From: Candidatus Moraniibacteriota bacterium
Lineage (GTDB): Bacteria; Patescibacteriota; Minisyncoccia; Moranbacterales; JAPLXC01
Reading direction: 5' to 3'
Assembly (NCBI GenBank): GCA_026396275.1
Contig: JAPLXC010000002.1
Span: forward strand, 10,618 to 74,617
DNA: 64,000 nt
In this document: piece after piece, positions 7,545 to 43,977 of the stretch
How positions within the stretch are numbered: position 1 is the first letter of the stretch
Layout: every line of letters begins with the position of its first letter
The notes under the pieces: generated by a model
Told to the model about the DNA's origin: nothing
Databases searched by the model: none
The model's input: only the letters and a program-made list of their open reading frames with translations
Program-made: the position numbers and the translations under genes

Positions 7545-9500
7545 TCACCAACTGGAAATTAATAGAATTGCTTTATTAATAAAGAAGTTTATCTCTGTTC
7601 CTAAGTTTTTGAAAAATTTTACTGCGTAGTGTTCTTCTTCCAAAATCGGAGAAGTGAAGGTGTAAATATTTTCCTCGCTTCTGACCGTTTTGGCACCCAA
7701 AACTCTGCCTTGGTTACCCTGAACATAGCTGGCCAGTTTAATATTCGTCCCATAATTGAATAGCTCGTTTTGTTTTTCCTCGCCGGATAAATCCTCCGAC
7801 TGCCCGTCCATAAATTCTTCAAAATCTTCTTCTTCAATGACTTCATTTTCCTGTGTTTCTGTTTCTACGTTTTCTTGTTCTTCTGTTTTTATGTTTTTTG
7901 GTGATTTGATCCACTGCCATCCGCTTTCCATCTTTTTGTAAACCTCGTTTTCCTCCGCTTTTTTCCCGTCCTTGTCATATTTAACTTGATAAGCTTTTTT
8001 GCCATCCGGATAGCGCAATTCTACTTTTCCTTTTTCATTATTAAGAGCAAAGCTCACGTATTTTCTGGTGATTATTCTTTCTTCTCCCGGACTAATACTA
8101 AAATCGTCCTTGATCCAATGATTGTAAAGTTTTTTGGACCCGGTGGCGATGCTCCAGCTTTTGAGATTGATTTCGTCATCCGAATAGTTTTTAACTGATA
8201 CCCATTCATTCTTGCTATCATTGCCGACGGGATTTGGGCAGATTGATTTTATCTTTACTTTATCGCGGGGAAATTTTTTGACTTTAATCTTAAAAGTTTC
8301 AATTTTTTCTTCACTACCATCAAATATCTTGAGAGTCACTTTGTATTTCCCGGCCTTTTCGTATTTGTGCTTCGTTTCCTTTTTGTAACTCTTGTGGCCA
8401 TCCCCAAAATCCCAGGTGTATTTTAACTTATCTTTATCCTTGTCCTTGGCTTTGGCGGAAAATTCGGCATAGACCCCGACATAAATTTTTTTGTCATTCT
8501 TGGACTTGGAATCAGGCAATTGATTAAATTTATTTTCTTCCCCGGGAGTCAAAAACCGGCTCCAGCGCCAAGACGCGCCGTCGAAATTGTAAGAAACACC
8601 TTCTTTGGCACTTCCCTTATATTCAACTGAGGAAACTGGGATTTTGTCCTGTGGATTATAAAGTTTTAAGATCTCTCCACTAGTATCATTAAGAGCAAGC
8701 TCACAATTTGTATTGCCTTTTCCGATTAGTAAAAAACCATTGCCTGAAATTTCTTTTCCGGAAAGATCGCATTTCTTGCCGGCTCGGTCTTCAATCCGCC
8801 AATTAGTTAATTTTTCAAGCTTATCACTGGAATTATACAGTTCAACAAATTCGTCTTGCGTCAGAGGATCATTCGGATGAGGATATATCTCATTTATACT
8901 GATTTTTTCCGTGTATACTTTTGGTTTTGAAGCTTTCTTTCCCGGTGTTCCTCCAGGATCATAGCTTTCCTGCCAGTTATAACTATTTTCCATTCTTTCA
9001 ATACTGTAATTTTTTATTGGATTTGAGAGATTATATGAACATTTTTGGGAATTTCCCCAACAAATTAAATCAATAACATCAACGTTTTTAGTCGCCGAGG
9101 TACTGATATATACCGCTCCGTTTGAAACAAGTGAAGCGGAATAAACCGTACCGATCGTCGTTTCTTGTTTATATTTTTCATAATAATCAACGGAGGAGAT
9201 CAGATAATAGTTCCCCGCTTCAATAATAGAATTTTTGAAAGAAAGCGTTTTATTAGTATCGGTTCCAGCGGAATTAACAATATGCAGTTTTAAGGGTAGG
9301 GTCTGCAGATTAATATCGTCATCGGTTGGATTGAACAGTTCAATAAATTCCTCGTTGGCTGAATTGGTGCCGATTAAAACTTCAGAGATAATTAATTGAT
9401 TAAAATTTTTCGCCAGAATAGGTTGGGAAAAACCAAAAAATCCCGCTGTAAGCAGGATTGAAAACAAAAATAAATTTACTTTTGTATTTTTGTTTTTCAC
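7545..9500 (-). CDS. Secreted surface protein with two lamin-tail (LTD) domains and a PKD domain
   Basis: 651 aa. N-terminal signal peptide. LIISEVLIGTNSANEEFIELFNPT and INEIYPHPNDPLTQDEFVELYNSS are LTD signatures. YTWDFGDGHKSYKKETKHKYEKAGKYKVTLKIFDG is a PKD signature. Lys/Asp-rich linkers. Confidence 0.6.
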   Translation of the reverse strand: MKNKNTKVNLFLFSILLTAGFFGFSQPILAKNFNQLIISEVLIGTNSANEEFIELFNPTDDDINLQTLPLKLHIVNSAGTDTNKTLSFKNSIIEAGNYYLISSVDYYEKYKQETTIGTVYSASLVSNGAVYISTSATKNVDVIDLICWGNSQKCSYNLSNPIKNYSIERMENSYNWQESYDPGGTPGKKASKPKVYTEKISINEIYPHPNDPLTQDEFVELYNSSDKLEKLTNWRIEDRAGKKCDLSGKEISGNGFLLIGKGNTNCELALNDTSGEILKLYNPQDKIPVSSVEYKGSAKEGVSYNFDGASWRWSRFLTPGEENKFNQLPDSKSKNDKKIYVGVYAEFSAKAKDKDKDKLKYTWDFGDGHKSYKKETKHKYEKAGKYKVTLKIFDGSEEKIETFKIKVKKFPRDKVKIKSICPNPVGNDSKNEWVSVKNYSDDEINLKSWSIATGSKKLYNHWIKDDFSISPGEERIITRKYVSFALNNEKGKVELRYPDGKKAYQVKYDKDGKKAEENEVYKKMESGWQWIKSPKNIKTEEQENVETETQENEVIEEEDFEEFMDGQSEDLSGEEKQNELFNYGTNIKLASYVQGNQGRVLGAKTVRSEENIYTFTSPILEEEHYAVKFFKNLGTEINFFINKAILLISSW

Positions 9501-12902: not shown

Positions 12903-15900
12903 TTATTCTTCCGTTACTCTCTCCACTTCCTCCAATGTCGTCTCGCCTTCCAAAACCTTAAGGATCCCGTCCTGCTGCATAGTGAGCATTCCGTTTTCAA
13001 TGGCTTTGTCGCGGATGTGGGTGGAAAGTTCGTTAGCATAAATCATTTCCTGGACGGCTTTGTCAATTACTAAGACCTCACTCACAGTGGTACGGCCTTT
13101 GTAGCCGATGCCGTTGCATTTGGCGCACCCTTTGGGCTTGTAAATGTAACTTCCGGGGGGAATTTTTACTCCCGCTTTGGGTGAAATTGACTTAATAATA
13201 TTTTTTATCTTTTCTTTTTCTTCCGCGGTGGGCTTAATTTTTTCCCGGCACTCACAAAGTTTTCGCACCAGCCGCTGCGCCATAAATCCATTGGCGGCGG
13301 TGGCTAAATCATCGGTTCTCACTCCCATATTGAGAAGGCGGGGAATAGCGCCGGGCGCGTCATTGGTATGCAAAGTTGATAAAACCAAATGTCCAGTGAG
13401 CGCCGATTGAACAGCGATGCCGGCTGTTTCCTCATCGCGGATTTCACCAATCATCATAATGTCGGGGTTTTGGCGAAGAAGCGAGCGCAGGGCCGTGGGA
13501 AAAGTGTATCCTTCTTTGTCACTAACCTGTGTTTGTAAAATCCCCGTCAGCTGGTATTCAATCGGATCCTCCACGGTGATTACTTTAACTTCGGGTTTAT
13601 TGAGCACCCGCAGCAAACTGTAAAGCGTCGTTGTTTTTCCGGATCCGGTGGGACCGGTATTGAGAAAAAATCCATTGGGCTTTTTGATTTCATGAAGGAT
13701 TTTATCCAGATTTTGTTTTCTGATCCCCAGTTTATCAACATCCAGCGCCACCGCTCCCCGATTGAGAAGGCGCATCACGACTGTTTCTCCGTAGCCGCCT
13801 AAAATTATGGAAACGCGCACGTCCACTTTTATTTCAGTTATATTTTTAAACGGCCGGTCTATGGCTATGGAAAAACGGCTGTCTTTTACTCCTTGGCGAA
13901 GTTCAGCTTTAAGCCCGGAAAGTATTTTTATCTCTCCTAAAAATGTCGGGTATTCATTGAGGGGAATCCGCCCGATGGTTTGCAAAATCCCGTCAATGCG
14001 AAGGCGCACCAAGACCTCTTTCTCTTCCGGCTCGATATGAATATCGCCGGCGGAAAGCAAAAGCGCCGCCGCGATAACGTAGCGCAGAGCGTCTTTTTGA
14101 TTAGCGCCTTTCAAAAACTCGGCGAATTTTTCGAAGGAGGATGTATTTTTAGAAACCTTTTCCAAATCTTCTTGAGGTATTTCGATCGCCCGGGAAAGCG
14201 ACTGCTCCATTAATTTTTCATAAATCTCTTCAAGGAATTCGGTTTGCCCCGTCACCCGCCATACCTCTTCCAGTGAAGTGATTCCCTCAATGGCTTTCAT
14301 GATCCCATCTTGCGCCATAGTTATCATGCCTTCTTCCAAAGCGGCTTGAGTTATTTCTCCTTCGCTGGCCATGTTTAAAATAAGTTTTTCGATTGATTCG
14401 CTCATGGTGAGAACCTCGAAAACTCCGATTCTCCCCCGATATCCCAGATTATGGCAACGGGGGCAACCTTTTGGCCGATATAATTGAAGGATATCTTTGG
14501 GGATTTCCATTTTTGACTTCGGGGAGATTATCGCCAGAATCTTTTTGATTGAGTTGGCTGTTTCCTTGGCGGGCTGATAGACCTCCCGGCAGTGAGGACA
14601 AATTTTTCGCACCAGGCGCTGGGCGATAAGAGCGCTCACCGCTGGAGCAATAAGGTTGGGTTTGACTCCCAATTCTATCAGGCGCGGAACAGCGCCAGCC
14701 GCGCTGTTGGTGTGAATCGTGGAAAGCACCAGATGCCCAGTTAGTGCGGCGTTAAGGGCAATGTCGGCCGTTTCTTCGTCGCGGATCTCGCCAACCAGAA
14801 TCACGTCCGGATCCTGTCGCACTATCGCCCGCAATCCCTTTTCGAAAGTGTACCCCCGGCTCTTGGACACCTGCGTCTGGGAGATTCCTTTTATTTCATA
14901 TTCCACCGGGTCTTCAATAGTTATTATTTTCACTCCCGGTACATTGATCCGGTTAAGAACGGCGTAAAGCGTTGTGGTTTTCCCGGATCCGGTGGGGCCG
15001 GTGTTGAGAATCATCCCATGGGGCTTTTCTGTCTGTTTTTGCACTTGCTCATAAGCTAGTCCCCGCAATCCCAGTTCCTCAACTCTCAAGAGGACATCGG
15101 CTTGATTGAGAAGACGCATCACGATGCTCTCTCCGCGGTTTCCGGGAATGATGCTGACGCGGATATTGATTAGCCCGTTTTCCAGATTGACATTGAAGTG
15201 CCCGTCCTGGGCAATATCACGGATGTTGAGTTTCATTCCTCCCATCATTTTCACCCGCGATATGATGAAGCGGTAAATATCCAGAGGCAGATATCCGACA
15301 TCCTGCAGAACTCCGTCCAGGCGATAGCGCAGACGCACTTCTTCTTCCTGCGGCTCAAAATGAATGTCGCTGGCTTTCATCTTCACCGCCCCGGCCATAA
15401 TGGTAGTGATAATCTGGGTGGTGGGAATTTCCCGGATCCTTTTTTTGAGTTCCAGCAGATCCTTGAATTCCCTTTCAAATTCTTCAAGGTCTTTTCCGCT
15501 AAGAGACAGGCGGAGAGCGTCCAGATTTTCCAAAAGCGGTGTCTCTTTATACTTATTCAGGGCTTTGCTAAGCGAAGAAAGCGAAACGACATAAAGGCGG
15601 ATGTTCCAACCATTTTCTTGCTGAAGTTTTTTGACGTAATCCAGTGTTTCACGGCTTCCGGGATTGGTCAGCGCCAGCCGGATGTTTTTCCCAGCTTTCT
15701 GAAAGACGGCCACTTGAAAACGGCGCGCCTCCTCTTCGGGAAGAGAGCGAAGCTCATCGCCGCTCAAAGGAAAGAGATTGAGATCAACGTAAAAAAGATT
15801 GTGTTTTTTGGCCAGCGCCGCGGCTTGTTCTTCTTCCGATTCCTTACGCATTCGCCGCAGGACTTGAGACGCCCTGATATCTTTTTCTTTATCAGCCGGC

Positions 15901-15950
15901 AGTGTTTTGCGGAAAACTTTAACCATAGAGTTACGACTATTGTACCGCAT
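12903..15950 (-). CDS. pilB: Tandem-fused double GspE/PilB-type secretion/pilus assembly ATPase
   Basis: 1015 aa = two complete GspE modules. Each has an N1 domain, Walker A (LNTGPTGSGKTTTLYAVL / FLNTGPTGSGKTTTLYSLL), Walker B (DPDVILVGEIRD / NPDIMMIGEIRD), a His box (LTGHLVLSTIHTN / LTGHLVLSTLHTN) and a C4 zinc knuckle (CPHC..CPRC / CECRE..CAKC). Confidence 0.85.
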   Translation of the reverse strand: MRYNSRNSMVKVFRKTLPADKEKDIRASQVLRRMRKESEEEQAAALAKKHNLFYVDLNLFPLSGDELRSLPEEEARRFQVAVFQKAGKNIRLALTNPGSRETLDYVKKLQQENGWNIRLYVVSLSSLSKALNKYKETPLLENLDALRLSLSGKDLEEFEREFKDLLELKKRIREIPTTQIITTIMAGAVKMKASDIHFEPQEEEVRLRYRLDGVLQDVGYLPLDIYRFIISRVKMMGGMKLNIRDIAQDGHFNVNLENGLINIRVSIIPGNRGESIVMRLLNQADVLLRVEELGLRGLAYEQVQKQTEKPHGMILNTGPTGSGKTTTLYAVLNRINVPGVKIITIEDPVEYEIKGISQTQVSKSRGYTFEKGLRAIVRQDPDVILVGEIRDEETADIALNAALTGHLVLSTIHTNSAAGAVPRLIELGVKPNLIAPAVSALIAQRLVRKICPHCREVYQPAKETANSIKKILAIISPKSKMEIPKDILQLYRPKGCPRCHNLGYRGRIGVFEVLTMSESIEKLILNMASEGEITQAALEEGMITMAQDGIMKAIEGITSLEEVWRVTGQTEFLEEIYEKLMEQSLSRAIEIPQEDLEKVSKNTSSFEKFAEFLKGANQKDALRYVIAAALLLSAGDIHIEPEEKEVLVRLRIDGILQTIGRIPLNEYPTFLGEIKILSGLKAELRQGVKDSRFSIAIDRPFKNITEIKVDVRVSIILGGYGETVVMRLLNRGAVALDVDKLGIRKQNLDKILHEIKKPNGFFLNTGPTGSGKTTTLYSLLRVLNKPEVKVITVEDPIEYQLTGILQTQVSDKEGYTFPTALRSLLRQNPDIMMIGEIRDEETAGIAVQSALTGHLVLSTLHTNDAPGAIPRLLNMGVRTDDLATAANGFMAQRLVRKLCECREKIKPTAEEKEKIKNIIKSISPKAGVKIPPGSYIYKPKGCAKCNGIGYKGRTTVSEVLVIDKAVQEMIYANELSTHIRDKAIENGMLTMQQDGILKVLEGETTLEEVERVTEE

Positions 15951-27580: not shown

Positions 27581-28957
27581 CTAGATATTATAAATCCTTT
27601 CTTTTATAATTTCTATTTCCTCTTTGAGCTTTTCATTCTCCTCTACCTCTCTGGATATTTTATCAAACGCGTGAAGGGCAGTGGTATGGTTGCGGCCACC
27701 AAACCGCTCTCCGATGCTAGGATAAGAAGTATTAAGCTCGCTTCGCATCAGATACATAGCAACTTGGCGGGCGCGGGCAATTTCCTTTTTTCTTCCTTTG
27801 ATAATGAGCTTTTTGTCGTCAATGCCATAAAATTCTGAAACGGCGTCAATAATATGTTTGTGTTGTACACCCTTCTTTTTGCCGCTGGTGATTATTTCTG
27901 AAAGGGACTGCCGAACAAATTTCAAAGAAGGGGGTTTTTTATTGAACTCACTGATAGCAATAATTCTGTTTAGTGCTCCCTCAAGCTCCCGGATATTGCT
28001 TTTAATGTTCTCGGCGACAAACCTGATTGTCTCGTCATCCAGGTAAATGTCACGCTCGGCTGATTTTGCCTTTAAAATAGCCATTCTTGTCTCTAAATCT
28101 GGCTTTCCGATATCGGCTATCATACCTCCTTCAAAGCGGGACCGCAAACGCTCTTCAATGGTGGGTATGGCCTTGGGGGGTCGGTCGCTGCTGATCACAA
28201 TCTGTTTGTTAATCTGGTATAAAACGTTAAAAATATGGAAAAATTCATTTTGGGTTTTTTCTTTCCCAGAAAGAAACTGAATGTCATCGATAATTAGCAA
28301 GTCAATTTTCTGGTAATCGGCTTTAAACTGGGCAATACTTTGGTTTTTTATTGATTCAATAAGTTCATTGGCAAATCTTTCAGAAGTTATGTATTTTATT
28401 TTTTTGTGGTCGTCTTTTTTTATAATCTCATTTCCAATTGATTGAAGAAGATGGGTTTTTCCCAGGCCCACCCCGCCGTAAATAAAAAGAGGATTGTAAG
28501 CCCTTCCTAGGTTTTGGGAAACTGCGTAACAAGCAGCACGCGCCAGCTCGTTACTTTCTCCAATAATGAAATTTTCAAATAAATATCTAGGATTTAAGCT
28601 GCTATCTTGGTGGATATCATAAGAATCTGACAAAGAGGCGGACATTCTTTTGCTCTGCTTTGGTATCTGGACGGCATCTACATTTTTTACAGGACTCTGA
28701 GAAGTTCCCTGGAAATTATAAACAGCGCAACTGACTTCTTTTATATCTTGCTGCAAATTGCGAAGAGAGCGGAGAACGTAAGCGTAATACTTATTTTCCA
28801 GCCATTCTTTAGCAAACCCATTAGGAACGCCAATGATCACCCGGCCGCCTTCATTAGAAAGAATAGTGGTATTTTTAAACCAAGTGACAAAATTTGCTTT
28901 AGAAATAGAAAGCTCTATTTCACCTAAGGCAGCTTGCCATAACTCTTCATTAGTCAT
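27581..28957 (-). CDS. dnaA: Chromosomal replication initiator DnaA
   Basis: AAA+ Walker A GGVGLGKTHLLQSIGNE and a C-terminal DNA-binding domain. Start re-set to MTNEELWQAALGE; the track extends to 28990. Confidence 0.92.
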   Translation of the reverse strand: MTNEELWQAALGEIELSISKANFVTWFKNTTILSNEGGRVIIGVPNGFAKEWLENKYYAYVLRSLRNLQQDIKEVSCAVYNFQGTSQSPVKNVDAVQIPKQSKRMSASLSDSYDIHQDSSLNPRYLFENFIIGESNELARAACYAVSQNLGRAYNPLFIYGGVGLGKTHLLQSIGNEIIKKDDHKKIKYITSERFANELIESIKNQSIAQFKADYQKIDLLIIDDIQFLSGKEKTQNEFFHIFNVLYQINKQIVISSDRPPKAIPTIEERLRSRFEGGMIADIGKPDLETRMAILKAKSAERDIYLDDETIRFVAENIKSNIRELEGALNRIIAISEFNKKPPSLKFVRQSLSEIITSGKKKGVQHKHIIDAVSEFYGIDDKKLIIKGRKKEIARARQVAMYLMRSELNTSYPSIGERFGGRNHTTALHAFDKISREVEENEKLKEEIEIIKERIYNI

Positions 28958-28980
28958 ATGTTTTAGAAAACACGATTGTA

Positions 28981-29063
28981 TTATGCACAAGAAAGTATAT
29001 CACGGTCAAGTTGTTCACACCAGTCAAATTAGTTCATAAACTTGTTTATAATATGTGAATAAG
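28981..29063. promoter_or_regulatory. DnaA-box cluster in the dnaA promoter/leader
   Basis: ttatgcaca (28981-28989, fits TTATNCACA), ttgttcaca (29011-29019) and tgtgaataa (29055-29063, reverse complement of TTATTCACA). Confidence 0.45.
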
Positions 29064-33271: not shown

Positions 33272-33337
33272 TGTCATTCCCGCGAAAGCGGGAATCTAGA
33301 GAATTTTCTAGATTCCGGCTCGGAGGCCGGAATGACA
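33272..33337. repeat. GTCAT-type modular double-hairpin element, full copy between the two GT2 genes
   Basis: tgtcat-TCCCGCgaaaGCGGGA-atctagagaattttctagat-TCCGGCtcggagGCCGGA-atgaca. Starts 4 nt after the upstream stop codon. Confidence 0.7.
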
Positions 33338-34143: not shown

Positions 34144-35496
34144 ATGGTTTATAAACTGCTTTTATTGTTCTGCCTCTATCTTCCCTTTCAAATCGCCTTA
34201 AATCCCAGCGAAGGAATTGACCTTGCTTCAGTAAGGGTAATAATCCCAATCCTGGCTTTATTATGGATTATTTCAGGTCTCAAAAACCGGCGGATTTTTA
34301 TTCCAGCGAAAATACAGACGGTTTTAATCATATTTTTTTTGTTCATAGCTGGCCTTTCACTATTTTGGGCAGATAATCAGGATTGGGGATTCCGGAAACT
34401 TTTGTTCTTGCTTTCAATCTTTCCGGTTTATTTTGTAGTAACCAGTATTATTCAATGTCATTCCCGCGAAAGCGGGAATCCAGAAATAAATGGCGTAGAT
34501 TCCGGCTCAGGGGCCGGAATGACATATCTGAATGTCAAAATTATCAAATTTCTCGTCTGGGGCGCGGGAGTTACATCTGTAATTGGCATAATTCAATTTC
34601 TTCTGCAATTTATGATTGGGCTGGATAATACTGCTGCAATTTGGAGAAATTACGTAACACCTCTGTTTTTAGGAAAATCATTTACTCATGCTGTTTTAGA
34701 ATATCCCAGCTGGCTGGTTAATGTTTCCGGGAAAGATTTTTTAAGGGCCTTTTCGACATTTCCCGATCCGCATATGCTTTCTTTTTATTTAGGGCTTTCG
34801 CTACCTTTGGCAATAGGATTATACTATGCTTTTAAAAAAAATATTTATTTATTTTTTTCTTTAATAATTTTAATCGCGAATCTCCTTACCTTTTCCCGTG
34901 GAGGGTATATCGGCTTGGCTGCCGGCCTGATTTTTATAGTTTTATATTTTGCTGTCAATAAAAAAATATCGGCTAAAAAACTTTTAGCTTCTCTTGTGCT
35001 GACACTGATTGTTTTGGCGTCTCTGGCGCTCACGCCAATCGGGAAGCGGGCCATTACCAGCTTCAGCACTGTTGAGGGCTCAAACAAGGTAAGATTTGAA
35101 AACTGGAATCAAGCGGTTAAAGTAATCAAAAATAATCCGCTGGGAGTGGGAATCGGCAATTATTCCTATGAAATTGAGCCCAGCGCTCCCTACCGGAAGC
35201 CGATTTACGCTCATAATTTATATCTTGACATCGCGGCGGAAACAGGAATTATCAATGCCATAATCTTTATATTGCTGGTCGTTTTTTCAATTAAAGATTT
35301 TGTGAAAAAATCAAAAGATAATATTTTATATCTAGGGAGTGCGGCGGGACTTGTGATTTTTTCAATCCATTCAGTTTTTGACACCGCGCTTTATTCAGTG
35401 CAAGTTCTGCCCCTGCTTTTAGTAATAATAGCTTTATCTGCTTCGAATAATTCCGGTAACACTATACTGCGGCCGCGGCATAGTGTTACCGGATGA
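34144..35496 (+). CDS. O-antigen ligase/polymerase-like (Wzy_C family) membrane protein with an in-frame repeat-element insertion
   Basis: 450 aa, multi-TM. Residues CHSRESGNPEINGVDSGSGAGMTY are encoded entirely by a GTCAT-type element. Confidence 0.55.
   Translation: MVYKLLLLFCLYLPFQIALNPSEGIDLASVRVIIPILALLWIISGLKNRRIFIPAKIQTVLIIFFLFIAGLSLFWADNQDWGFRKLLFLLSIFPVYFVVTSIIQCHSRESGNPEINGVDSGSGAGMTYLNVKIIKFLVWGAGVTSVIGIIQFLLQFMIGLDNTAAIWRNYVTPLFLGKSFTHAVLEYPSWLVNVSGKDFLRAFSTFPDPHMLSFYLGLSLPLAIGLYYAFKKNIYLFFSLIILIANLLTFSRGGYIGLAAGLIFIVLYFAVNKKISAKKLLASLVLTLIVLASLALTPIGKRAITSFSTVEGSNKVRFENWNQAVKVIKNNPLGVGIGNYSYEIEPSAPYRKPIYAHNLYLDIAAETGIINAIIFILLVVFSIKDFVKKSKDNILYLGSAAGLVIFSIHSVFDTALYSVQVLPLLLVIIALSASNNSGNTILRPRHSVTG
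34456..34525. repeat. GTCAT-type double-hairpin element inserted in frame within a CDS
   Basis: tgtcat-TCCCGCgaaaGCGGGA-atccagaaataaatggcgtagat-TCCGGCtcagggGCCGGA-atgaca. The element begins exactly at a codon boundary of ORF 34144..35496. Confidence 0.65.
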
Positions 35497-35508: not shown

Positions 35509-36777
35509 ATGGCTGCAAAAGTAAATAAAATATTGATTCCGCTGACAATACTTTTAATTCCGGCTTATCTGATCAGGTTTTCTGTTTTTGGCATCCCGAC
35601 TAATTTGCTGGAAATTTTGGTTTTGGTGGTTTTTATTTCGGCGTTTTTGAGCAAGCAAAAAATTGATTACAAAGAATTTTACAAGCAAAACAAAGTTTAT
35701 TTTTTTGGAATACTGCTGGTAATTGCCGGACTTTTTATATCAACGGTGGTGAGTGGACATTACCGAATCGGATTCGGAATAATCAAGGGATGGTTTATTA
35801 TCCCACTTGTTTTTTCTTGGGTTTTAATCAAGGAAATAAAGAAGAAAGAAGATTTAGAAAATATTTTAAAATGGCTTTATTTAGGCATTTTTGGAGTAGC
35901 TGCAATCAGTTTAATTTATTATTTTCAAGGAAATGTAACTTACGACAGCCGGCTCAAGGCCCTTTATCTTTCGCCTAATCATCTGGCGATGTATCTGACG
36001 CCGGGAATAATAATTGGAATCTACTTAATTCAAAATACAATTTCTCAACTAACGGGTGAATCTTACAAAGAGATGCGCTTACTTGCATATACAGGCAAAA
36101 GCTACCACTCGCTGTTTTTTAATACAATCTCCTTTTTAATTATTCTGTCTAGCTTGTACCTCACCTATTCCTATGCGGCGTGGGTAGCGGTGATTTTGAG
36201 TTTAATTATCACGGCGCTTTTTGGCAAAAGAAAATTAAGCAAAAAATTTGTTTTGATTGGAGCAATAATTATTTTACTTATTATTATGAGCCAGTGGAAC
36301 ACTGAAAAAATGGAAAATCTCAAAAACTTTTCCCGATCTTCTCTGGAATCAAGGGTCATCATCTGGCAATCAGCGACGAAGATTCTTAAAGATAATGTTA
36401 TCTGGGGGATCGGACCGGGAAATTTTCAAAATATTTATCTGGAATATCAAAAATATTTTCCACCCTATCTTGAATGGGCGGTTCCCCAACCCCTTAACCT
36501 ATATCTTGCTTTTTGGCTTCAGAGCGGGATTTTTGGATTTATCGGGTTTTTAATTTTAATTATTAAGTGGATGCATGAAACATTAAAAAATGAAAAAAAC
36601 AGCTTATTTTTAATAGAAGCTGTTTTATTGGGAATAATGCTTTATATATTAATTCACGGTTTCATTGACACGCCCTACTGGAAAAATGATCTGGCTGTTA
36701 TTTTTTGGATAATATTTTCTCTGAGAATAGTAGCAAGCCAACTGAAAAATCCGAAGCTATTAGCCCAAACTTCTTAA
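35509..36777 (+). CDS. O-antigen ligase/Wzy-like polytopic membrane protein
   Basis: 422 aa, about 10-12 TM helices, with a Wzy_C-like central loop region. Confidence 0.5.
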   Translation: MAAKVNKILIPLTILLIPAYLIRFSVFGIPTNLLEILVLVVFISAFLSKQKIDYKEFYKQNKVYFFGILLVIAGLFISTVVSGHYRIGFGIIKGWFIIPLVFSWVLIKEIKKKEDLENILKWLYLGIFGVAAISLIYYFQGNVTYDSRLKALYLSPNHLAMYLTPGIIIGIYLIQNTISQLTGESYKEMRLLAYTGKSYHSLFFNTISFLIILSSLYLTYSYAAWVAVILSLIITALFGKRKLSKKFVLIGAIIILLIIMSQWNTEKMENLKNFSRSSLESRVIIWQSATKILKDNVIWGIGPGNFQNIYLEYQKYFPPYLEWAVPQPLNLYLAFWLQSGIFGFIGFLILIIKWMHETLKNEKNSLFLIEAVLLGIMLYILIHGFIDTPYWKNDLAVIFWIIFSLRIVASQLKNPKLLAQTS

Positions 36778-36942
36778 AGATTGATTCCGTATAGCTTCCC
36801 GTCAATCCGGTTGATGAAAAAAAGTTCTTCTTCCGAAGGAGAAAGAAAAAGATGGCTAGCATCAAGGCTTCCTTTCATATCTTCCAGTTCAACAATTCGA
36901 TCCTTTTTCCCGGTGGACATGTCTACTTTCCAGAAAGTATCT

Positions 36943-37836
36943 TTAGTTGTAACCTTTTTTTCTTGATAGTCGTTTGGACGTGAGTGTTGGAATACTAAGG
37001 TTTTGATATCCTCCGCCGTTGCTATTAATTACAGCGAGCATTATTTTTGAGCTTCCTTTCGCTTCAGCGGAGCTAACTAGGGCCTTTTCTCCATTGGGGG
37101 ACCAAAGGTAATCCGCTCCGAATTTTTTCGAAAAGATTGTTTTTGTTTCTCCACCAGTCACTCCCACAATCTGAAGAGATGTTTCTTCAAAACCATTGGG
37201 AGCATTCCAGAAAGAAATTAGGGAGGTCTGGAGAACAGGTGTTAGAGAAATAAAGCGAAGTGTAGTGTCTGCCAATTTTTCCCAGTTGCTTCCGTCAGGA
37301 TTGGCAATATTAATACTCCGCTTTTTTGTTTGAGAATTGAAATGCTTGTAGATAATTTTATCGCCCAGATTAGTCCAAGCAATACTGTCAATTCCATCTT
37401 TAAGCCGTTTTCCTTCCTGGGTAGTGTAGTCGTAGAGATAAAAGATAGTTTTTCCTTCTTTGTTAAACACCGAAATCACTTTATTCTTATCCGGTGACCA
37501 AAAAACATTTTCCAGTCCCTTGAGATCTTCGCTTGAGGTCATTCTTTTATTAGTTCCTTTTAATGTAACTTCATAAACGTTTCCATTAGAGCGGGTGTAA
37601 TAAGTGATATGCTCACCATCTTTGCTTATCGTCGGGGAAATAACCGCTTCGTCAGTGAGAGGATAGATTTTTTCCTTTGACTTTTCTTGTTTTTTCTCCG
37701 GAGCGGCTTTTTCTTCCTTTTTAACAATCTCTGGAGAGCCGGCTTTTTTCTCTTTAAAAGCAAAATTATAAACCCCCCAGAAGAGGAGGATGACAAGAAG
37801 AGCGACGAAAGAAATTATAAAAACCTTTTTAGCCAT
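36943..37836 (-). CDS. TolB-like periplasmic beta-propeller (PD40/WD40-like) protein, apparently frameshifted at its 3' end
   Basis: 297 aa. N-terminal TM/signal, Lys-rich linker, then beta-propeller-like repeats. Another 58 protein-like codons continue in a different frame down to about 36774. The frame breaks at a T7/A7 homopolymer at 36955-36961. Confidence 0.5.
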   Translation of the reverse strand: MAKKVFIISFVALLVILLFWGVYNFAFKEKKAGSPEIVKKEEKAAPEKKQEKSKEKIYPLTDEAVISPTISKDGEHITYYTRSNGNVYEVTLKGTNKRMTSSEDLKGLENVFWSPDKNKVISVFNKEGKTIFYLYDYTTQEGKRLKDGIDSIAWTNLGDKIIYKHFNSQTKKRSINIANPDGSNWEKLADTTLRFISLTPVLQTSLISFWNAPNGFEETSLQIVGVTGGETKTIFSKKFGADYLWSPNGEKALVSSAEAKGSSKIMLAVINSNGGGYQNLSIPTLTSKRLSRKKGYN

Positions 37837-37854
37837 CTTATATTTAAAGCTTAA

Positions 37855-38325
37855 CTAGTTTTTAAGAAGTTGTCCTCCTTCGCAAAAACTTAGCTTATAA
37901 ATACCGCCTCCAAATTTTTCGTTGACCGTATATGGTACAGTAATAGAAACTTTGAGCTTACATGCGTCTTCTTTATTAATTTTAAGAGCTCTTAAAAATT
38001 CCTGCTCTGCCGCAATCTGGGCTTTTTCAGTATCTTTGTTAAGCAGAGCTATAATAAAACCTTGATCCCCGGGATAATATTCAATTAAAAAATCTTCAGT
38101 TGATTGAAAAGTGACACCGCCCATTGAAAGTTTTTCAACAGGATTTTCGGTTATATCAGTTATTTTGACTTCGCCTTGTTCAGTTTTTATTGTTATCTTT
38201 TCCGGGCCATATCTTTCCCTAAGAATAAAAAAAGCAAATATTCCTACCGTCAAAATCACTATAATTGTAATGAGCATTGTTTTTTTTGTAAGCATATATA
38301 AAAGAATTTTAGAAATTACAAACAC
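37855..38325 (-). CDS. Membrane-anchored hypothetical protein
   Basis: 156 aa. One N-terminal TM helix, then a soluble domain. In an operon with neighbours (overlaps the upstream gene by 17 nt). Confidence 0.4.
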   Translation of the reverse strand: MFVISKILLYMLTKKTMLITIIVILTVGIFAFFILRERYGPEKITIKTEQGEVKITDITENPVEKLSMGGVTFQSTEDFLIEYYPGDQGFIIALLNKDTEKAQIAAEQEFLRALKINKEDACKLKVSITVPYTVNEKFGGGIYKLSFCEGGQLLKN

Positions 38326-39211
38326 TATTAGCGCCCCAGGCTCTCCAGCCGCTTGACTGATAAATTGAACAGGCTGCTTGAATATTTGTGCTGGCTGTTT
38401 GAGCGGCGGCGACGCACTGCTGGTATAAAGTTTGATTCGTGACAGTGCAGTTATGATTACGACCTGTATATGGGTTACTAAAAGCTGAAGGGCAATTCAG
38501 GCCAGCGACAGGATTAGCACTAATATTTATTTGAAACAGTCCCCAAGAAACTACCTCGTTGCCCGGCTGGCATCTATCTACTCCACTAGCCCTCCGTTCT
38601 ATTCCACCACTCTCTGCATTGCAGATACCAGAGGCTTGCTCGGCTACAGAAGCAAAACAAGTATTTCTTAAATTTTCTACTGAACAAGGGCCAGTAGATA
38701 GGGGCGCACAACGTACCGGAGGAGGATAAACACCGGGCGGTCGTGCGGGCGGAGCTGGCTTTGGCAATTCTACTGCTTTCAAGGTGAGATTTATCTTAAC
38801 CAAATCCGGATTAATGACATAAAGTAAGAGCCAAGCAGCCAGAGCAATAAGCAAACCAAAAAGAGCATCAAAAATCACCTTTTTGGCCGATTCCATCCGG
38901 GAGGTGTTACCGGCGCTGGTCATATACATAAACCCGCCGATAGTAATCATTAGAAGCGCGGCGATCCCGACCGTCCAGATGGCAAATTTGGTAATGGAAA
39001 GAATGTAGCTGGGAAAAGTAGTGGCTGCGGTCTCAAATCCTGGGATTTTTTCCATCGGGGTATATTCATATGCTGCTGTCTGATAAACAAAAGAAATACA
39101 AAAAACAGCCAATAGTAAGAAACCAGCGATAAAAAAAGGTAAGTAAGAATTAGCTTTTTTCATAAGAAGTTTCTTTAGGCCGATAGGTCTCAGGAATGAA
39201 AGCAAAGACAA
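38309..39211 (-). CDS. VirB2/TrbC-pilin-like membrane hairpin fused to a C-terminal Cys-rich lysozyme-like (lytic transglycosylase-like) domain
   Basis: 300 aa. Two TM helices bracket FMYMTSAGNTSRMESAKKVIFDALFGLLIALAAWLLLYVINP, which is TrbC/VirB2-like. A PAPPARPPGVYPPP linker follows. The C-terminal domain carries NAESGG ... SWGLFQIN (SLT-like E-S ... GLxQ) and 12 Cys. Confidence 0.45.
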   Translation of the reverse strand: MSLLSFLRPIGLKKLLMKKANSYLPFFIAGFLLLAVFCISFVYQTAAYEYTPMEKIPGFETAATTFPSYILSITKFAIWTVGIAALLMITIGGFMYMTSAGNTSRMESAKKVIFDALFGLLIALAAWLLLYVINPDLVKINLTLKAVELPKPAPPARPPGVYPPPVRCAPLSTGPCSVENLRNTCFASVAEQASGICNAESGGIERRASGVDRCQPGNEVVSWGLFQINISANPVAGLNCPSAFSNPYTGRNHNCTVTNQTLYQQCVAAAQTASTNIQAACSIYQSSGWRAWGANSVCNF

Positions 39212-41984
39212 CTCCCGTGGTAATTAGAATAATGGCGATGGTAAGAATAATTCTTAGCAGAAACATAATCTGGGTTGGCAGATGGGAAAGAAGGCCAGCG
39301 AGAAACTTACCGCTATTTTTTAAAGTCAGTGCTTCTTCTTCACTGGATAAAGCAACTTCAACCTGAAGCGAAACCGGCATATATTTTTCCGTGGACTCAA
39401 ACTGGGAAATATTCCAGATTTTGTTGAGCGCTTTTCTTATGTCGTTTGATGTCTTATATAAAGTATTCAGTCCGATGTTATAAACATCTCCGGCCTCTTT
39501 TTCCGCCGTGAGGTTTAATCCAGCCGAGTTTGTTAAATCGCTAAAAAGTGCTCCGTCAATTGTCCATTCGGTCTTTACCCCTTTCCCAATATAGTTTTTC
39601 AACCAGGCAGGATGGAACTCGGCTTCAAGTCCTACTTCGTTTCCCGTGAGTGTTTGGAAAACTGATTCACTGGAATCAGGAAATTGATTACCATCCAGGT
39701 CAATATACATTCCTAAGTATTTTGGCCAGCAGAATTGCTCATTAGTAGAGATTATTTTCACGAAAGGGTCGATAACTTGAAAAACCCGAGTCAAATGAAT
39801 TGTCTGGCCGGTTTCCACGTCATTGGCGGTAACGTCAATAGTATATTTGTCGCCCGGGTCGCCAGTGGCCGGGAAGAAATTAATTTCTTGCTGTTCAGAA
39901 GCAAGACAATTCTTTTCTGAAATATTAGTGGAGTCGCAGAAAAGCGTCTGACCGTTAATTGTCCAGGAAAAGTTTTTAAGATTTTCTTTATCAACTTTAA
40001 GTCCGATAATCTCGTTTTTCAGGACGTAGCAGACGGCCGCTTCTTCGCGGCTGGTGCAAATTTCATTACCCTCGTTTAGTATTAAGGGTCCGCCAGTAGC
40101 GGAAAAATTCGTATCCACCGGGGAAAAAGCCCGAATCTTTTGATCGGTAGTGAAGACCTTAATGATAACATCGCTTCTTCCTTCCCGGGTTGTGTTTTCA
40201 TCCAAGCTTTCTTTCGAAGAAGGATAATTTTCATTAACTACGACGGAGACCTTCAAGTATCCATAGCCGTCGCCAGAAAAGACATTGTCATCAGTAAGAT
40301 CAAGTTTAAACTTTAATGAAGGAATATTAATTCCCTTAAGAGGAGTAGTTTTTAAAATACACTCTTCTTCATCCCCACCTTCGCAGATAGTTTGCCAGTC
40401 GGCGGGATTGGAAGAAGGAAATCCTGTCTTGCTAATAGCTATCTTCCAGGTATAAAGTAGTTGCTGGCTTTCCTGATCAGCATTGGCAATGGTTGCTTGA
40501 GTATTTACTACGTCTCCCATTTCGTCACCGCTCGAGTCATTTATCGGATTTTCCGGAGAATAGGACAGGGAAACATCCAATTTTTTCGGCTGGAGCCCTT
40601 CTTTGGGATCAACAAGATTATCTTCTAGGCAGTCATTGAAAAAATCCTCATAGTCATCGTGATCAAAAGCCGGAATTTTCACGTTGTATCCTTTTATGCT
40701 CTCGTAATAGTACGATTTGCTTGAGTCCGGAATGGAGCAGTCGTTTTTAGGCATCGCCCACATAATCATAAAAGACGAATCGTCGTGTTTGGCGGGAATC
40801 ATCGAAGTCCCTTCTACCAATACTCCGACCTTATCTCTGTCGTCATAATTCCAGGTGAAAGTAAACTGGCCCACTCCGACAGCATTGGCTTCGTCGCGGT
40901 TGCCGTTGTCGGCCGTGTCCGGATCGTGAGGATTAGTCCACCAGAATTCCTCTTCCTCTTCTTTGAAATCATTATCTCCTACTTTCTCATCGTTTAAATC
41001 TCCCTTATAGTCGGGAAAAAGATGATGAGGAAGAAGATCATAGCACTTGTTAGATACACTGGATGATTCTCCAGTAGAGCAAGTTGGTGTTTCAAACCCA
41101 AAAGAACTGCAAGCGTCAAGATTAGGGTCGGGCATATCATTGCACTCTCCTTCAAGATTGTCAGTGTCGATACATAATGGGTCGCCGGAAGAACAGACGG
41201 GGATTTGAGTGGAGGGATCGCAAGTCATAGCTGTTTCAGTATCATTGCAGGTTTTGTATTCAATGTAGTTGCCTGCCCCATCATCGCAATTAAGAGTTTC
41301 AGTTTTTACGCATTTGGCGACTGTGCCACTAGGGCAAGTAAAGCTGGTATTGGAGGTTTCGGCTAACTCATAGTTTATACCACTTACGAAATCGTGAATG
41401 TAGCAGTAAGCTGTTTCATCTTCCTGCTCTTCTTCGTTTTTATTGGCACCTCCCCAGCGGGCAAGATAGCCGTCTTTATCATCATCGGAGCTGTAGTCGG
41501 CCCTTGTTGTATCATAGCCGTTATTGGTGATATAGCGCATCGCTTCCACCTTCCAGTCATTGACAGTTATCTTTCCATTCCCGTCAGCATCGCATTTCTT
41601 CTTTGTTTCAGAGCTGGGCGAGTCGGTGGGGCCGCAGCCGCTGTGGCGCAAATACCAAGTGTAGTAAAGTTGTTCTTTGGCAATGTTGAAATACTGGGGA
41701 AGCGCTTCGGCGGTTATTTTTTCCCCCGGCCTGGGATCAGCAGGATTAAAAAAAAGCATTACTTCCGGAACATTCTTTTTCTGGTCGGACACGTTAAAAT
41801 TTTCTCCCTGATTCTGAATGCTTTCAAGGTTTAGATGATAACGCCTTTCTAATTCGGCAGCCACCGAGGAGGGAGAAGGAATAGACAAAGCAAAAGCGGG
41901 AAAAGCGCTAAGAAAAACTGCTTCAGCGGCAACCGTGAGGACTAAAAGAATTCTCTTTATGATCTTTAATATTTGTTTTTTCAT
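39150..41984 (-). CDS. Giant secreted/surface Cys- and Asp-rich protein with a C-terminal TM anchor
   Basis: 944 aa. Signal peptide, many Cys pairs, acidic low-complexity stretches, C-terminal helix IILTIAIILITTGVVFAFI. No recognisable catalytic motif. Confidence 0.55.
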   Translation of the reverse strand: MKKQILKIIKRILLVLTVAAEAVFLSAFPAFALSIPSPSSVAAELERRYHLNLESIQNQGENFNVSDQKKNVPEVMLFFNPADPRPGEKITAEALPQYFNIAKEQLYYTWYLRHSGCGPTDSPSSETKKKCDADGNGKITVNDWKVEAMRYITNNGYDTTRADYSSDDDKDGYLARWGGANKNEEEQEDETAYCYIHDFVSGINYELAETSNTSFTCPSGTVAKCVKTETLNCDDGAGNYIEYKTCNDTETAMTCDPSTQIPVCSSGDPLCIDTDNLEGECNDMPDPNLDACSSFGFETPTCSTGESSSVSNKCYDLLPHHLFPDYKGDLNDEKVGDNDFKEEEEEFWWTNPHDPDTADNGNRDEANAVGVGQFTFTWNYDDRDKVGVLVEGTSMIPAKHDDSSFMIMWAMPKNDCSIPDSSKSYYYESIKGYNVKIPAFDHDDYEDFFNDCLEDNLVDPKEGLQPKKLDVSLSYSPENPINDSSGDEMGDVVNTQATIANADQESQQLLYTWKIAISKTGFPSSNPADWQTICEGGDEEECILKTTPLKGINIPSLKFKLDLTDDNVFSGDGYGYLKVSVVVNENYPSSKESLDENTTREGRSDVIIKVFTTDQKIRAFSPVDTNFSATGGPLILNEGNEICTSREEAAVCYVLKNEIIGLKVDKENLKNFSWTINGQTLFCDSTNISEKNCLASEQQEINFFPATGDPGDKYTIDVTANDVETGQTIHLTRVFQVIDPFVKIISTNEQFCWPKYLGMYIDLDGNQFPDSSESVFQTLTGNEVGLEAEFHPAWLKNYIGKGVKTEWTIDGALFSDLTNSAGLNLTAEKEAGDVYNIGLNTLYKTSNDIRKALNKIWNISQFESTEKYMPVSLQVEVALSSEEEALTLKNSGKFLAGLLSHLPTQIMFLLRIILTIAIILITTGVVFAFIPETYRPKETSYEKS

Positions 41985-42625
41985 TATTTTGCGAGGCCAA
42001 TAACTAAAGCATCGGCGATGATGATAAAAAATAAGCTGGTTCCGAAGGAGTAAAAAATTGAACGGCTCTGATAAGCGACAATTCCAGCAAAAGGAGAAAC
42101 GATAACATAAAGGGTGGTTGACCAGTCAAGTCCGCCAACCAGGAGGAAAAAAGTCAGAAACACGGCAAATTGCACCGCAATCGACCAGTATCCTATTGCC
42201 CGCGACAATCTCAGCATAATAAACCCCCGGAAAAAAAATTCGTAAAGCGCTGCGAACAACCCAACCAGGAGAAGTTCATACGAGATAAAAAACACAAATC
42301 GTTCGGCTATCAAGCGAGGCGGATGGTAATGTTGTGGGAGATTAGTGTAGTGGAAGAGAATGTAAAAAGTCAAAAGTGAGCCCAGTAGCATTATTCCCAT
42401 CCACAAAATACCTCTTTGCCTGTCTCCTGTCTGAAGACCAAACTTTTTAAGCGACCCTTTTAGTATTATTTTAATATATAATACCGGAATTACCAAGAGA
42501 AATGCCATGGTCGAGACAATCTGCTGGAAGATATTTTGAGTGGGGAAAACACTGTATAAAATCAGGCAAATTAAAGCCACGGCGATAGTTATCAGTAAAT
42601 TCTTGTTATTTACGATGATTCTCAT
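41984..42625 (-). CDS. CPBP-family (CAAX/Abi-like) intramembrane protease
   Basis: 213 aa, about 6 TM helices. LYEFFFRGFIM resembles the CPBP EExxxR motif region. Assignment is tentative. Confidence 0.45.
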   Translation of the reverse strand: MRIIVNNKNLLITIAVALICLILYSVFPTQNIFQQIVSTMAFLLVIPVLYIKIILKGSLKKFGLQTGDRQRGILWMGIMLLGSLLTFYILFHYTNLPQHYHPPRLIAERFVFFISYELLLVGLFAALYEFFFRGFIMLRLSRAIGYWSIAVQFAVFLTFFLLVGGLDWSTTLYVIVSPFAGIVAYQSRSIFYSFGTSLFFIIIADALVIGLAK

Positions 42626-42675
42626 TAAATCTAATGTAAGTTAATCGAGAAAAAATCAATCCTGTTATTATCATA

Positions 42676-43083
42676 CTATAATTTCAAGTATTTTACTAGC
42701 AGCAAAATACCGCCGAGGACGATGAAGCTGTCGGCCAGGTTGAACGCCGGCCAAAACTTAAGGTCAATGAAGTCGATAACGCAGCCAAACATTATGCGAT
42801 CAATGATATTAGAAGTTGCTCCGGCCAGAACAGGAATTATGAATAATGAATTATGAATCACAGATTTTTTGCTAATAAAGGCAAATATTAAAATAGTAAT
42901 TGCTAAAAGCCAAAAAAGCCAAAATAAAATCTCGGGTACTTTTATTCCCCAGGCAATATTTATGTTGCAAATATAAAATCCGCCCCCTTGGCGGATTAGA
43001 TACTTAGAAAACTGGTCGAGAGGGACTAGAGCAAAAAACAACAGCGCAAAAAGTATTTTTTTGGTTTTTATTTCAGGGTCCAT
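42676..43083 (-). CDS. lspA: Lipoprotein signal peptidase II
   Basis: [41 protein letters not shown] is the LspA C-terminal motif. Start re-set to MDPEIK, which ends the overlap with the upstream gene. Confidence 0.75.
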
Positions 43084-43088
43084 AATGC

Positions 43089-43442
43089 CTACTTGCACCG
43101 GATGCATGTCTTGGCGGCGGGATAAGCCCGCAGTCGCTCGATGTTTATCTCTTGACCGCAATTGCCGCAGGTTCCGTAAGTTCCCTCTTCCATTCGTGCC
43201 AGAGCGTCGCCTACATCTTTCAGGCGCTTTTCAAGAGTGCTCTCCAGGGCTAAATTATCAGTGTATTCCTCAACTTCTGACGCGTTTTCATCCACATCGG
43301 TGCCAAGATCGCTAAATTTGGTTTTATAGTCCCCAGGAACTTCGGTAGGGGCGGCAAAGTTTTTCAGCTCGTTTTCAAGACGATTTTTTTCTTTGAGAAG
43401 CTTTTCTTTCAGTTCCGTTTGAATTTGAGGGTCAATGGCCAT
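43089..43442 (-). CDS. DksA/TraR-family C4 zinc-finger protein
   Basis: 117 aa. Coiled-coil N-terminus, then [26 protein letters not shown]. Confidence 0.75.
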
Positions 43443-43521
43443 AGCAAAAGATTGTTAGAAAATTAAAAGATGGAAAATTATTCCGTCTTGTTTTTATTGT
43501 ACTGGTAAACAGTGATATTGT

Positions 43522-43920
43522 CTAGATAAAAATGTTTTCAAGATGGCTTATTTTAAATGCTTTTCGGTTTTCTCCGATCCAAACGGAAAGAGCGTCAAAA
43601 TGATACGGCTTATCCCAGGCGTTTTCCTGCTTAATATAAAACAAGGCGATTTTGTTTAATTTGTGAAGCTTGGCTTTGGTAATATTTTCCTCGGGAAGCG
43701 ACTTATCGCCAGCGGAAAGCTCCCGCGTTTTTACTTCCACAAAAACGATCTCGCCGTTTTTTTTGGCAATAATATCAATTTCACCAAGTCTTCGCCCGAG
43801 AGGATTTTTAAAATTTTTTTCCAGAACCTTGTATCCTTTGTTTTTTAAATATTCTGCCGCAATTTTTTCGCCCAGCTGCCCGGTATTTAATTTCTCTTTT
43901 TTCCAGAATAAAAGCTTCAT
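43522..43920 (-). CDS. yraN: YraN-family (UPF0102) endonuclease
   Basis: GEKIAAEYLKNKGYKVLEKNF ... GEIDIIAKKNGEIVFVEVKTR. Start re-set to MKLLFWKK. Confidence 0.7.
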   Translation of the reverse strand: MKLLFWKKEKLNTGQLGEKIAAEYLKNKGYKVLEKNFKNPLGRRLGEIDIIAKKNGEIVFVEVKTRELSAGDKSLPEENITKAKLHKLNKIALFYIKQENAWDKPYHFDALSVWIGENRKAFKISHLENIFI

Positions 43921-43977
43921 AATCAGATTATAGCAGAAAAAACAAAAAACACCCTTGGCTGGTGTTCTTTTTCCCAA

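Follow-up and report, generated by a model that had tools for sequence, protein, structure and literature searches.

A VirB2-like pilin module joined to a lysozyme-like domain in a gene block that is probably the distal part of a Patescibacterial type IV secretion system

Several Patescibacteria encode type IV secretion systems (T4SSs) described as MPF-FATA-like (PMC10633639; PMC12102498). In Southlakia epibionticum both the T4SS and its array of pilins have been found essential (PMC10633639), and the T4SS genes of this class lie near dnaA, rnpA and rpmH (PMC12102498). The second report, a 2025 survey, also states that hidden Markov models (HMMs) for VirB1 (VirB1, TrsG and CD419) found few Patescibacterial homologues and that most genomes with VirB2-like pilins were without a VirB1 wall hydrolase; it concludes that the putative pilus needs no VirB1 and allows that other glycosidases might substitute (PMC12102498). 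Here we describe a gene block from Candidatus Moraniibacteriota bacterium that bears on this question. The block lies in a stretch of 64,000 nucleotides (contig JAPLXC010000002.1), which we call the window. All coordinates are positions within this window, and all eight genes of the block and its immediate context are on the minus strand. Five of these genes (41984-42625, 39150-41984, 38309-39163, 37855-38295 and 36777-37836) probably form the distal, envelope-facing part of a Patescibacterial T4SS, and one of them encodes a VirB2-like pilin module fused to a lysozyme-like domain. It is likely that this T4SS is related to the monoderm conjugation machinery and that its locus is split in this lineage.

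The block shares several features with the published Patescibacterial systems (PMC10633639; PMC12102498). It comes from the Moranbacteria lineage, its relatives have PrgI/VirB3, TraC/TrsD-like and VirB4 genes as neighbours, the pilins are VirB2-like members of PF18895, the position is origin-proximal, and the loci examined showed no relaxase gene. It differs in that the locus is split, with only the distal block inside the window, and the accessible parts of the same papers make no mention of pilin-hydrolase fusions, a CPBP-like protein, an approximately 930-residue protein or a propeller. Two further groups of proteins offer a comparison for the fusion. The VirB1-type hydrolases of monoderm systems (PrgK of pCF10, TraG of pIP501 and TcpG) are likewise membrane-anchored, extracytoplasmic peptidoglycan hydrolases encoded with a T4SS and often of the SLT type. 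However, their anchor is a plain N-terminal transmembrane (TM) segment, often accompanied by a CHAP domain, whereas the present protein is anchored by a VirB2-like two-helix hairpin that follows a predicted cleavable signal peptide, and its enzyme is a small, Cys-rich SLT_3 domain. The VirB2/TrbC/TraA pilins share with the fusion a signal peptide, two hydrophobic helices, a short basic loop, a predicted location of both ends outside the cell, and genes within T4SS loci. Classical members of this group have about 70-130 residues and no enzyme, whereas the fusion adds a linker of about 30 residues and an enzyme of 135, and its polymerisation would be hypothetical.

The fusion gene (38309-39163) encodes 284 residues counted from M17. 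Its open reading frame (ORF) reaches back to a TTG at 39211, giving a 300-residue version whose numbering we use unless M17 numbering is stated. The homologues in a 39-sequence alignment align from M17 (position 39163), and for this reason M17 is most likely the start. The 284-residue version is the other member of the protein's 90% cluster (P0361, from the Logan assemblies), and the GenBank version (NT136_00320) has 248 residues, its internal Met start dropping the signal peptide. Across the 39 homologues the order of elements is a signal peptide, a YxYTPMExIPG segment, two hydrophobic helices, a variable linker rich in Pro, Gly and Ser, and a Cys-rich domain.

A first-pass annotation of the window, made from the sequence by a model, had likened the N-terminus of this protein to a conjugative pilin hairpin, and residues 69-133 do exceed the Pfam gathering score for T4SS_pilin (PF18895; 27.2 bits against 26.6). 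Orthologues in the same locus position score up to 38 bits. The NCBIfam model of a Mbov_0395 pilin-like conjugal transfer protein (NF045849) also matches the fusion (E 2.4e-5), but with 23.9 bits it falls short of the model's cutoff of 40. The module (38792-39064) consists of the conserved YxYTPMExIPG segment, two hydrophobic helices and the basic loop AGNTSRMESAKK. In the structural model the helices span residues 66-98 and 103-133 at a predicted local distance difference test score (pLDDT) of about 90, and hydropathy places hydrophobic segments at 4-32, 53-83 and 92-124 (M17 numbering). The protein thus has the VirB2/TrbC-type layout of a signal peptide and two hydrophobic helices with a short basic loop. 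Mean column identity is higher in the pilin module than in the enzyme module (61% versus 49%), and nearly invariant residues run along both helices of the hairpin. The VirB2-like assignment is marginal for this protein and draws on the HMM match, which is stronger in the orthologues, on the predicted topology and on the gene context.

The C-terminal Cys-rich domain (38309-38719; SLT_3/GH23-like) follows the Pro-rich linker ELPKPAPPARPPGVYPPPVR and models confidently with the alpha+beta fold of lysozyme. The residues E200-S201 and G224-L-F226-Q227-x-N229 are invariant across the 39 homologues, and eight cysteines are conserved. The lysozyme-like assignment, which the first-pass annotation had also made, is therefore well supported by the confident model together with the invariant Glu-Ser pair and the G-L-F-Q-x-N motif. 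The predicted catalytic glutamate is E200 (E184 from M17; codon at 38612-38614), with the invariant serine next to it. Three homologues (P0004, P0022 and P0099) pass the gathering score of the SLT_3 family (PF18896, "Lysozyme like domain") with 27.3-33.1 bits against 27 and match T4SS_pilin as well, and in P0115 a canonical SLT domain (PF01464, E 1e-15) occupies the position of the window's enzyme domain. We take the motif S-W-G-L-F-Q-I-N of the fusion to correspond to D52-Y-G-I-L-Q-I-N of hen lysozyme, and on this assumption the position equivalent to Asp52 is a conserved serine (S222). The presumed replacement of the second c-type catalytic acid by serine would suggest a single-glutamate mechanism in the style of lytic transglycosylases or g-type lysozymes. 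Searches of PDB sequences using phmmer and profiles of the whole fusion, the pilin module and the lysozyme-like module returned nothing significant. Matches to RNase A in these searches (E of about 0.1-1) were dismissed as noise from the cysteine pattern.

We found 320 homologues of the fusion. When the 91-residue pilin module was compared by phmmer with 1.84 billion cluster representatives, 22,496 of them matched at E<=1e-3 and 1,464 still did so at E<=1e-10; we broke down the architectures of the best 150 of these 22,496 matches. Eleven of the 150 are pilin-only proteins of 125-147 residues, 15 carry three to seven tandem pilin modules, and about 124 have a single module within a protein of 178-542 residues. 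A Pfam scan matched T4SS_pilin in 110 of these 124 single-pilin proteins at E<=1e-3. The second domains recognised among the 124 were SLT (17), SLT_3 (10), NlpC/P60 (3), CHAP (1), destabilase (1) and C39-like peptidase (1-2), so the recognisable partners of the pilin module are nearly all predicted cell-wall hydrolases. A pilin-like module joined to a wall-degrading domain had been thought unusual in the first-pass annotation, and this does not hold within the Patescibacteria, where most of the 150 closest pilin-domain relatives are fusions. As far as the accessible literature shows, the VirB2-like/VirB1-like fusion family is previously unreported; both domain families are already in Pfam.

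In other genomes the gene at this locus position retains the pilin module (56-68% identical), but its C-terminal domain has no SLT_3 match. One such domain, in locus L054, has weak matches to VanY (E 0.026) and M15 (E 0.04) in Pfam, and we regard the LAS/M15-type metallopeptidase motifs in the alternative domains as a lead to which Pfam gives weak support in this one case. Some genomes have two different fusions, one on each side of the propeller gene. In L014 (12018-12671) and L026 (12342-12998) the propeller gene is followed immediately downstream by a second pilin-fusion paralogue whose C-terminal domain differs, and the same holds for L009, L012, L015, L016, L028 and L030; the window has no second copy. 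Pilin-only or tandem-pilin paralogues sit within T4SS loci. Six proteins of 350-890 residues (P0362, P0365, P0371, P0387, P0398 and P0441) contain three to seven tandem T4SS_pilin hairpins, and these poly-pilins may be genuine fusion proteins or products of read-through across arrays of pilin genes.

To place the block in its genomic setting we compared 59 loci from species-representative genomes, found with a 12-sequence alignment, and several more obtained by exact protein look-up, all scored with tblastn. All of the related loci are Patescibacterial. The order CPBP-like gene, 944-residue protein gene, pilin fusion, small-protein gene (not always present) and propeller recurs in 20 loci. This answers in the affirmative the question, raised by the first-pass annotation as a test of its own proposal, of whether these genes are conserved neighbours in related genomes. 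Three arrangements were observed. In the first, found in 14 loci and in the window, the block follows yraN, dksA and lspA, and the surface protein has about 940 residues. In the second, found in six loci (L001, L010, L013, L021, L064 and L065) that include the closest relative at 62% identity, the block directly follows a T4SS core in the order VirB6-like gene of about 700 residues (not always present), a gene of about 530 residues, PrgI/VirB3, TraC-like, VirB4 and a gene of about 165 residues; the CPBP-like gene, the gene of about 940 residues, the pilin fusion, the optional small gene and the propeller then complete the locus. The third characterises nine more distant loci, where the pilin-SLT and 156-like genes have PrgI, TraC-like and VirB4 genes at a distance of 4-7 kb on their upstream side and the propeller usually comes next. 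In L006 and L007, VirB4, a gene of about 160 residues, the CPBP-like gene and a gene of about 930 residues close a T4SS cluster that opens with a LysM-CHAP hydrolase.

The split of the locus was followed in one genome of the first arrangement (L002/L067). Here the VirB4 core consists of two pilin genes, PrgI, TraC-like, VirB4 and a 151-residue gene and ends where the block would begin, and the block itself is about 130 kb away on the same contig. The genome studied here encodes a VirB4 (MCX6765458.1) that is 83% identical to the VirB4 of L001. This protein is recorded on a 139,204-bp contig, as are the block proteins MCX6765409 and MCX6765410, and its accession is 48 above that of the 944-residue protein; the exact matches of the block in the metagenome-assembled genome (MAG), NT136_00320 and NT136_00325, are on a 139,204-bp contig too. 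From the equal contig size and the accession order, VirB4 is very probably located about 48 genes past the block, beyond coordinate 64000. The first-pass annotation had suggested a link to a T4SS and a search for VirB4 and VirB6 elsewhere in the genome. The link is borne out by the six relatives in which the block follows PrgI, TraC-like and VirB4, and by a VirB4 apparently on the same contig; as to the search, VirB4 is present in the genome, whereas neither VirB4 nor VirB6 lies in the window. The block sits a few kb from dnaA behind yraN, dksA and lspA, and the VirB4 core appears to lie some 48 genes further on. The dnaA gene is at 27581-28990, about 8 kb from the block, which is thus origin-proximal, and this fits the published closeness of T4SS genes to dnaA. 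Among the records with this block, many from binchicken-derived MAGs (for example L008, L012, L013 and L020) are labelled 'uncultured Bdellovibrionales' or 'Candidatus Saccharibacteria'; the organism labels of these records (L033-type loci) do not match the gene content and are probably wrong taxonomic assignments.

The first gene of the block (41984-42625) encodes a polytopic membrane protein of 213 residues in the CPBP/Rce1 superfamily, with about six hydrophobic segments. It is always directly upstream of the gene for the 944-residue protein, and its stop overlaps the start of that gene by 1 nt. The window protein has no Pfam match and matches only MrtA in NCBIfam (E 6e-6; 26.6 bits against a cutoff of 200), and a profile search of PDB sequences with the family returned nothing. 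Of its 23 orthologues, 13 match PF02517 at E<=1, the best of them with E 3e-7; myxosortase-type CPBP models are also matched by several (best E 7e-10). The catalytic motifs of CPBP proteases are EExxxR, FxxxH and HxxxN/D. In the 23 aligned orthologues there is no conserved histidine, and motif 1 reads (Y/Q/F/C)-E-F-F-F-R-G, the first glutamate of EExxxR being lost. The family therefore resembles the CPBP/Rce1-like glutamic intramembrane proteases, including the myxosortases MrtA, MrtP, MrtS and MrtJ, in its polytopic fold family, in keeping E-x-x-x-R-G and in adjoining a gene for a C-terminally TM-anchored protein, but differs from them in that the first glutamate and both histidine motifs are absent in all 23. 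The processing protease proposed in the first-pass annotation is doubtful for these reasons, and we read the protein as a putative CPBP-fold membrane subunit without canonical protease chemistry.

The next gene (39150-41984) encodes the 944-residue secreted surface protein, with a signal peptide and a C-terminal TM anchor. It had been described as a Cys- and Asp-rich secreted protein with a C-terminal anchor, and this description is accurate: there are 23 Cys and 77 Asp residues, the N-terminus forms a signal-like helix, and residues 898-934 make up a TM segment. It contains a conserved CDxDxDGxITVxDW loop, a Cys-rich region and a chain of immunoglobulin (Ig)-like beta-sandwich domains, and a conserved motif at the C-terminus stands immediately beside the conserved TM anchor. 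Profile searches assigned it to no family and gave no specific match.

Downstream of the fusion gene, the small N-terminally anchored protein (37855-38295) has 146 residues from M11, its ORF extending to 38325 (156 residues). It has one N-terminal TM segment, two invariant cysteines and a conserved AC...SFC pattern, and its family has no relative in Pfam or the PDB. The gene follows 21 of 32 pilin-SLT_3 genes and none of the 33 pilin genes whose C-terminal domain is of another kind or lacking, these being raw counts that include shared ancestry. The last gene encodes an N-terminally anchored, PD40-type beta-propeller with one N-terminal TM segment; its first 297 codons occupy 36943-37836, where a frameshift ends the ORF. 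Matches to TolB (TIGR02800, E 3e-9; 36 bits against a cutoff of 343) and DUF5050 (E 1e-5) are both far below cutoff, PD40 is below threshold, and the loci examined showed no Tol-Pal genes. Of the TolB-like propeller in the first-pass annotation the propeller fold stands, of PD40 type, and we rejected TolB orthology on the scores. The orthologues have 350-409 residues and lie downstream of the pilin-fusion gene in most loci. Relative to these homologues the ORF, which stops early at 36943, lacks about 77 nt (the segment CAWSxDSKTVYxALP...L, missing from between IPTLTSK and PNDYQ); the 67 codons of the conserved C-terminus remain intact in another frame with a stop at 36777. This out-of-frame remainder (36777-36985; …PNDYQEKKVTTKDTFWKVD…GKLYGINL*) was identified by tblastn with the L001 and L002 orthologues and by three-frame translation. 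The lesion may be either very recent, a strain variant or an assembly error.

Upstream of the block, yraN, a dksA-family gene and lspA form its context. The eight ORFs occur in a row on the minus strand at 36777-43977 in the ORF list, in agreement with the first-pass annotation, in which these three genes run into five overlapping or abutting ones. The yraN gene (UPF0102; 43522-43977; PF02021 E 2e-22, NCBIfam YraN E 4e-25) likely starts at the ATG at 43920, is syntenic in 14 related loci and is outside the T4SS module. The DksA/YteA-family gene (43089-43442) encodes a C4 zinc finger (PF01258 E 6e-10; TIGR02890 yteA E 4e-24). We rejected a TraR-like role for it: the TraR subfamily model gives just 29 bits against a cutoff of 59.7 while the yteA/DksA models score far higher, and loci in which the block abuts virB4 lack this gene. 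The signal peptidase II gene lspA (42676-43083; PF01252 E 5e-20) has an ORF reaching 43161 and most likely starts at the ATG at 43083; the L002 orthologue has 138 residues. At the most likely starts the junctions are 79 nt (yraN-dksA), 5 (dksA-lspA), 50 (lspA-CPBP-like), -1 (CPBP-like-944), -14 (944-pilin), 13 (pilin-156) and 18 (156-propeller), so that from dksA through the propeller all lie between -14 and +50 nt. Scans for promoters and terminators gave nothing informative.

Several observations weigh against assigning the block to a T4SS and the fusion to the pilins. The pilin match is marginal, 0.6 bits over the Pfam threshold and below cutoff in NCBIfam, and a two-helix hairpin is a simple fold. 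A profile search of PDB sequences with the pilin module matched no pilin, and Foldseek of the fusion model against the PDB found nothing below E 2, an archaeal conjugation pilin appearing at a non-significant E of 4.8. The window fusion has no PF18896 match at E<=0.1. No VirB4, VirB6 or VirB3 gene was found in the 64-kb window by tblastn with T4SS core proteins and small pilins of three relatives, and the placement of VirB4 on the block's own contig, very probable as it is, comes from equal contig size and consecutive accessions. Gene order is what suggests both the operon and the physical association of the block with a T4SS. The propeller gene is disrupted in this assembly, and the separate LysM-CHAP hydrolase in L006 and L007 indicates that a VirB1-type enzyme is not always missing.

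If the block is part of a T4SS, the fusion would be exported by Sec and its signal peptide cleaved. The VirB2-like hairpin would then sit in the membrane with its basic loop in the cytoplasm and both ends outside, and the Pro-rich linker of about 30 residues would let the disulfide-stabilised lysozyme-like domain reach the peptidoglycan. This domain may cut glycan strands through a single catalytic glutamate, like lytic transglycosylases and g-type lysozymes. It is possible that the pilin-like hairpin targets the enzyme to the site of T4SS or pilus assembly, perhaps co-assembling with free VirB2-like pilins, and in this way the fusion would take over the role of VirB1, for which HMM surveys found these systems mostly without a gene. 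As a partner specific to the SLT_3 domain, the small anchored protein would probably act as an inhibitor or a chaperone. The 944-residue Ig-domain protein would be a surface-exposed component whose conserved membrane anchor pairs with the catalytically degenerate CPBP-fold protein, and the propeller may be a further extracytoplasmic subunit.

Could the fusions instead be directed at a host bacterium? On this explanation, which we consider possible but rather unlikely, they are weapons or tools in which the VirB2-like module displays or delivers swappable wall-degrading domains on or through the T4SS pilus. The domains (SLT_3, SLT, NlpC/P60, CHAP, destabilase and possibly an M15-like one) would breach the wall of the host, a step to which we give similarly limited credence, and the small anchored protein would, just as tentatively, be the cognate self-protection (immunity) factor for the SLT_3 version. 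The architecture matches that of polymorphic effectors: the N-terminal module is conserved, and relatives have swapped C-terminal enzymes at one locus position. Several genomes have two different fusions flanking the propeller gene. The distribution of the small gene, with 21 of 32 SLT_3 fusions and none of 33 others, is what a cognate partner would show, although these are raw counts across related loci, the gene is absent at 11 of the 32 and its product resembles no known lysozyme inhibitor. Published work describes Patescibacterial T4SS loci as without relaxases and essential for epibiotic growth. Against this, it is the norm in monoderm T4SSs for membrane-anchored hydrolases, PrgK and TraG among them, to act on the wall of the producer itself (as cited in PMC12102498), and export of the fusion from the producing cell or its entry into a pilus would be hypothetical. 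The X-Tfe/X-Tfi pairs of Xanthomonas and Stenotrophomonas are similar in combining a T4SS with peptidoglycan hydrolase domains, each followed by the gene of a small envelope-anchored protein. They differ in using a C-terminal XVIPCD signal and a VirD4 coupling protein, whereas here the candidate signal is an N-terminal pilin-like hairpin and both delivery and immunity would be hypothetical.

The first-pass annotation had suggested a surface fibre or adhesion apparatus coupled to envelope housekeeping genes. In its fullest form, a self-contained fibre or adhesin whose CPBP protease processes the 944-residue or the pilin-like protein and which is coupled to the lspA, dksA and yraN operon, this is improbable. 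The junctions from dksA through the propeller are tight, and the order yraN-dksA-lspA-block is kept in 14 species-level loci. The CPBP-like family matches models of myxosortase type, enzymes that cleave C-terminal sorting signals, and the 944-residue protein does have a conserved C-terminal motif directly beside its TM segment. However, the canonical glutamate/histidine centre is absent from the CPBP-like family, and in six loci, including the closest relative, the block directly follows virB4 without yraN, dksA and lspA, which makes the coupling a lineage-specific juxtaposition. A functional tie to lspA through lipoboxes was rejected, no module protein having one. A fibre or adhesion apparatus is also too vague a description, and the distal part of a Patescibacterial T4SS describes the block better. 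It is scarcely credible that the two-helix module is a generic membrane anchor of ordinary growth or division autolysins, its proximity to T4SS genes being incidental as both are origin-near: the marginal pilin assignment, the generic helical hairpins returned by structure searches and the origin-proximal clustering of many genes reported for the class (PMC12102498) would fit, but the hairpin is better conserved than the enzyme and has near-invariant residues that a passive anchor would not need, pilin-only or tandem-pilin paralogues occur in T4SS loci, and the block abuts virB4 in six loci with VirB4 4-7 kb upstream in nine more.

The window contains other features apart from the block. A 24-nt palindrome, GTCATTCCCGCGAAAGCGGGAATC, occurs in identical copies at 33273-33296 and 34457-34480, with none expected by chance. 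One copy is intergenic and the other lies within a 450-residue ORF resembling Wzy_C/O-antigen ligases, where it encodes ...HSRESGNPE..., which suggests the in-frame insertion of a small repeat element. At 12903-15950 a 1015-residue protein has two T2SSE (PilB/GspE-type ATPase) stretches and an MshEN domain and appears to be a tandem or fused secretion ATPase. A 651-residue protein at 7545-9500, with three lamin-tail domains and a PKD domain, is probably another surface protein.

The Patescibacterial T4SS is unusual among monoderm systems in having VirB2-like pilins, and epibiotic growth depends on it in the single species in which this has been tested. The fusion family suggests an answer to the VirB1 puzzle, in which a VirB2-like paralogue carries the wall-cutting enzyme, whose divergent domains the published VirB1 searches may have missed. 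The block adds four conserved candidate components to the T4SS, namely the CPBP-fold protein, the Ig-domain protein of about 930 residues, the small SLT_3 partner and the anchored propeller. As the locus can be split, surveys confined to 20 genes around virB4 will miss parts of the block. Should the fusions prove to be directed at the host, the essential T4SS would gain a concrete job in epibiotic feeding.

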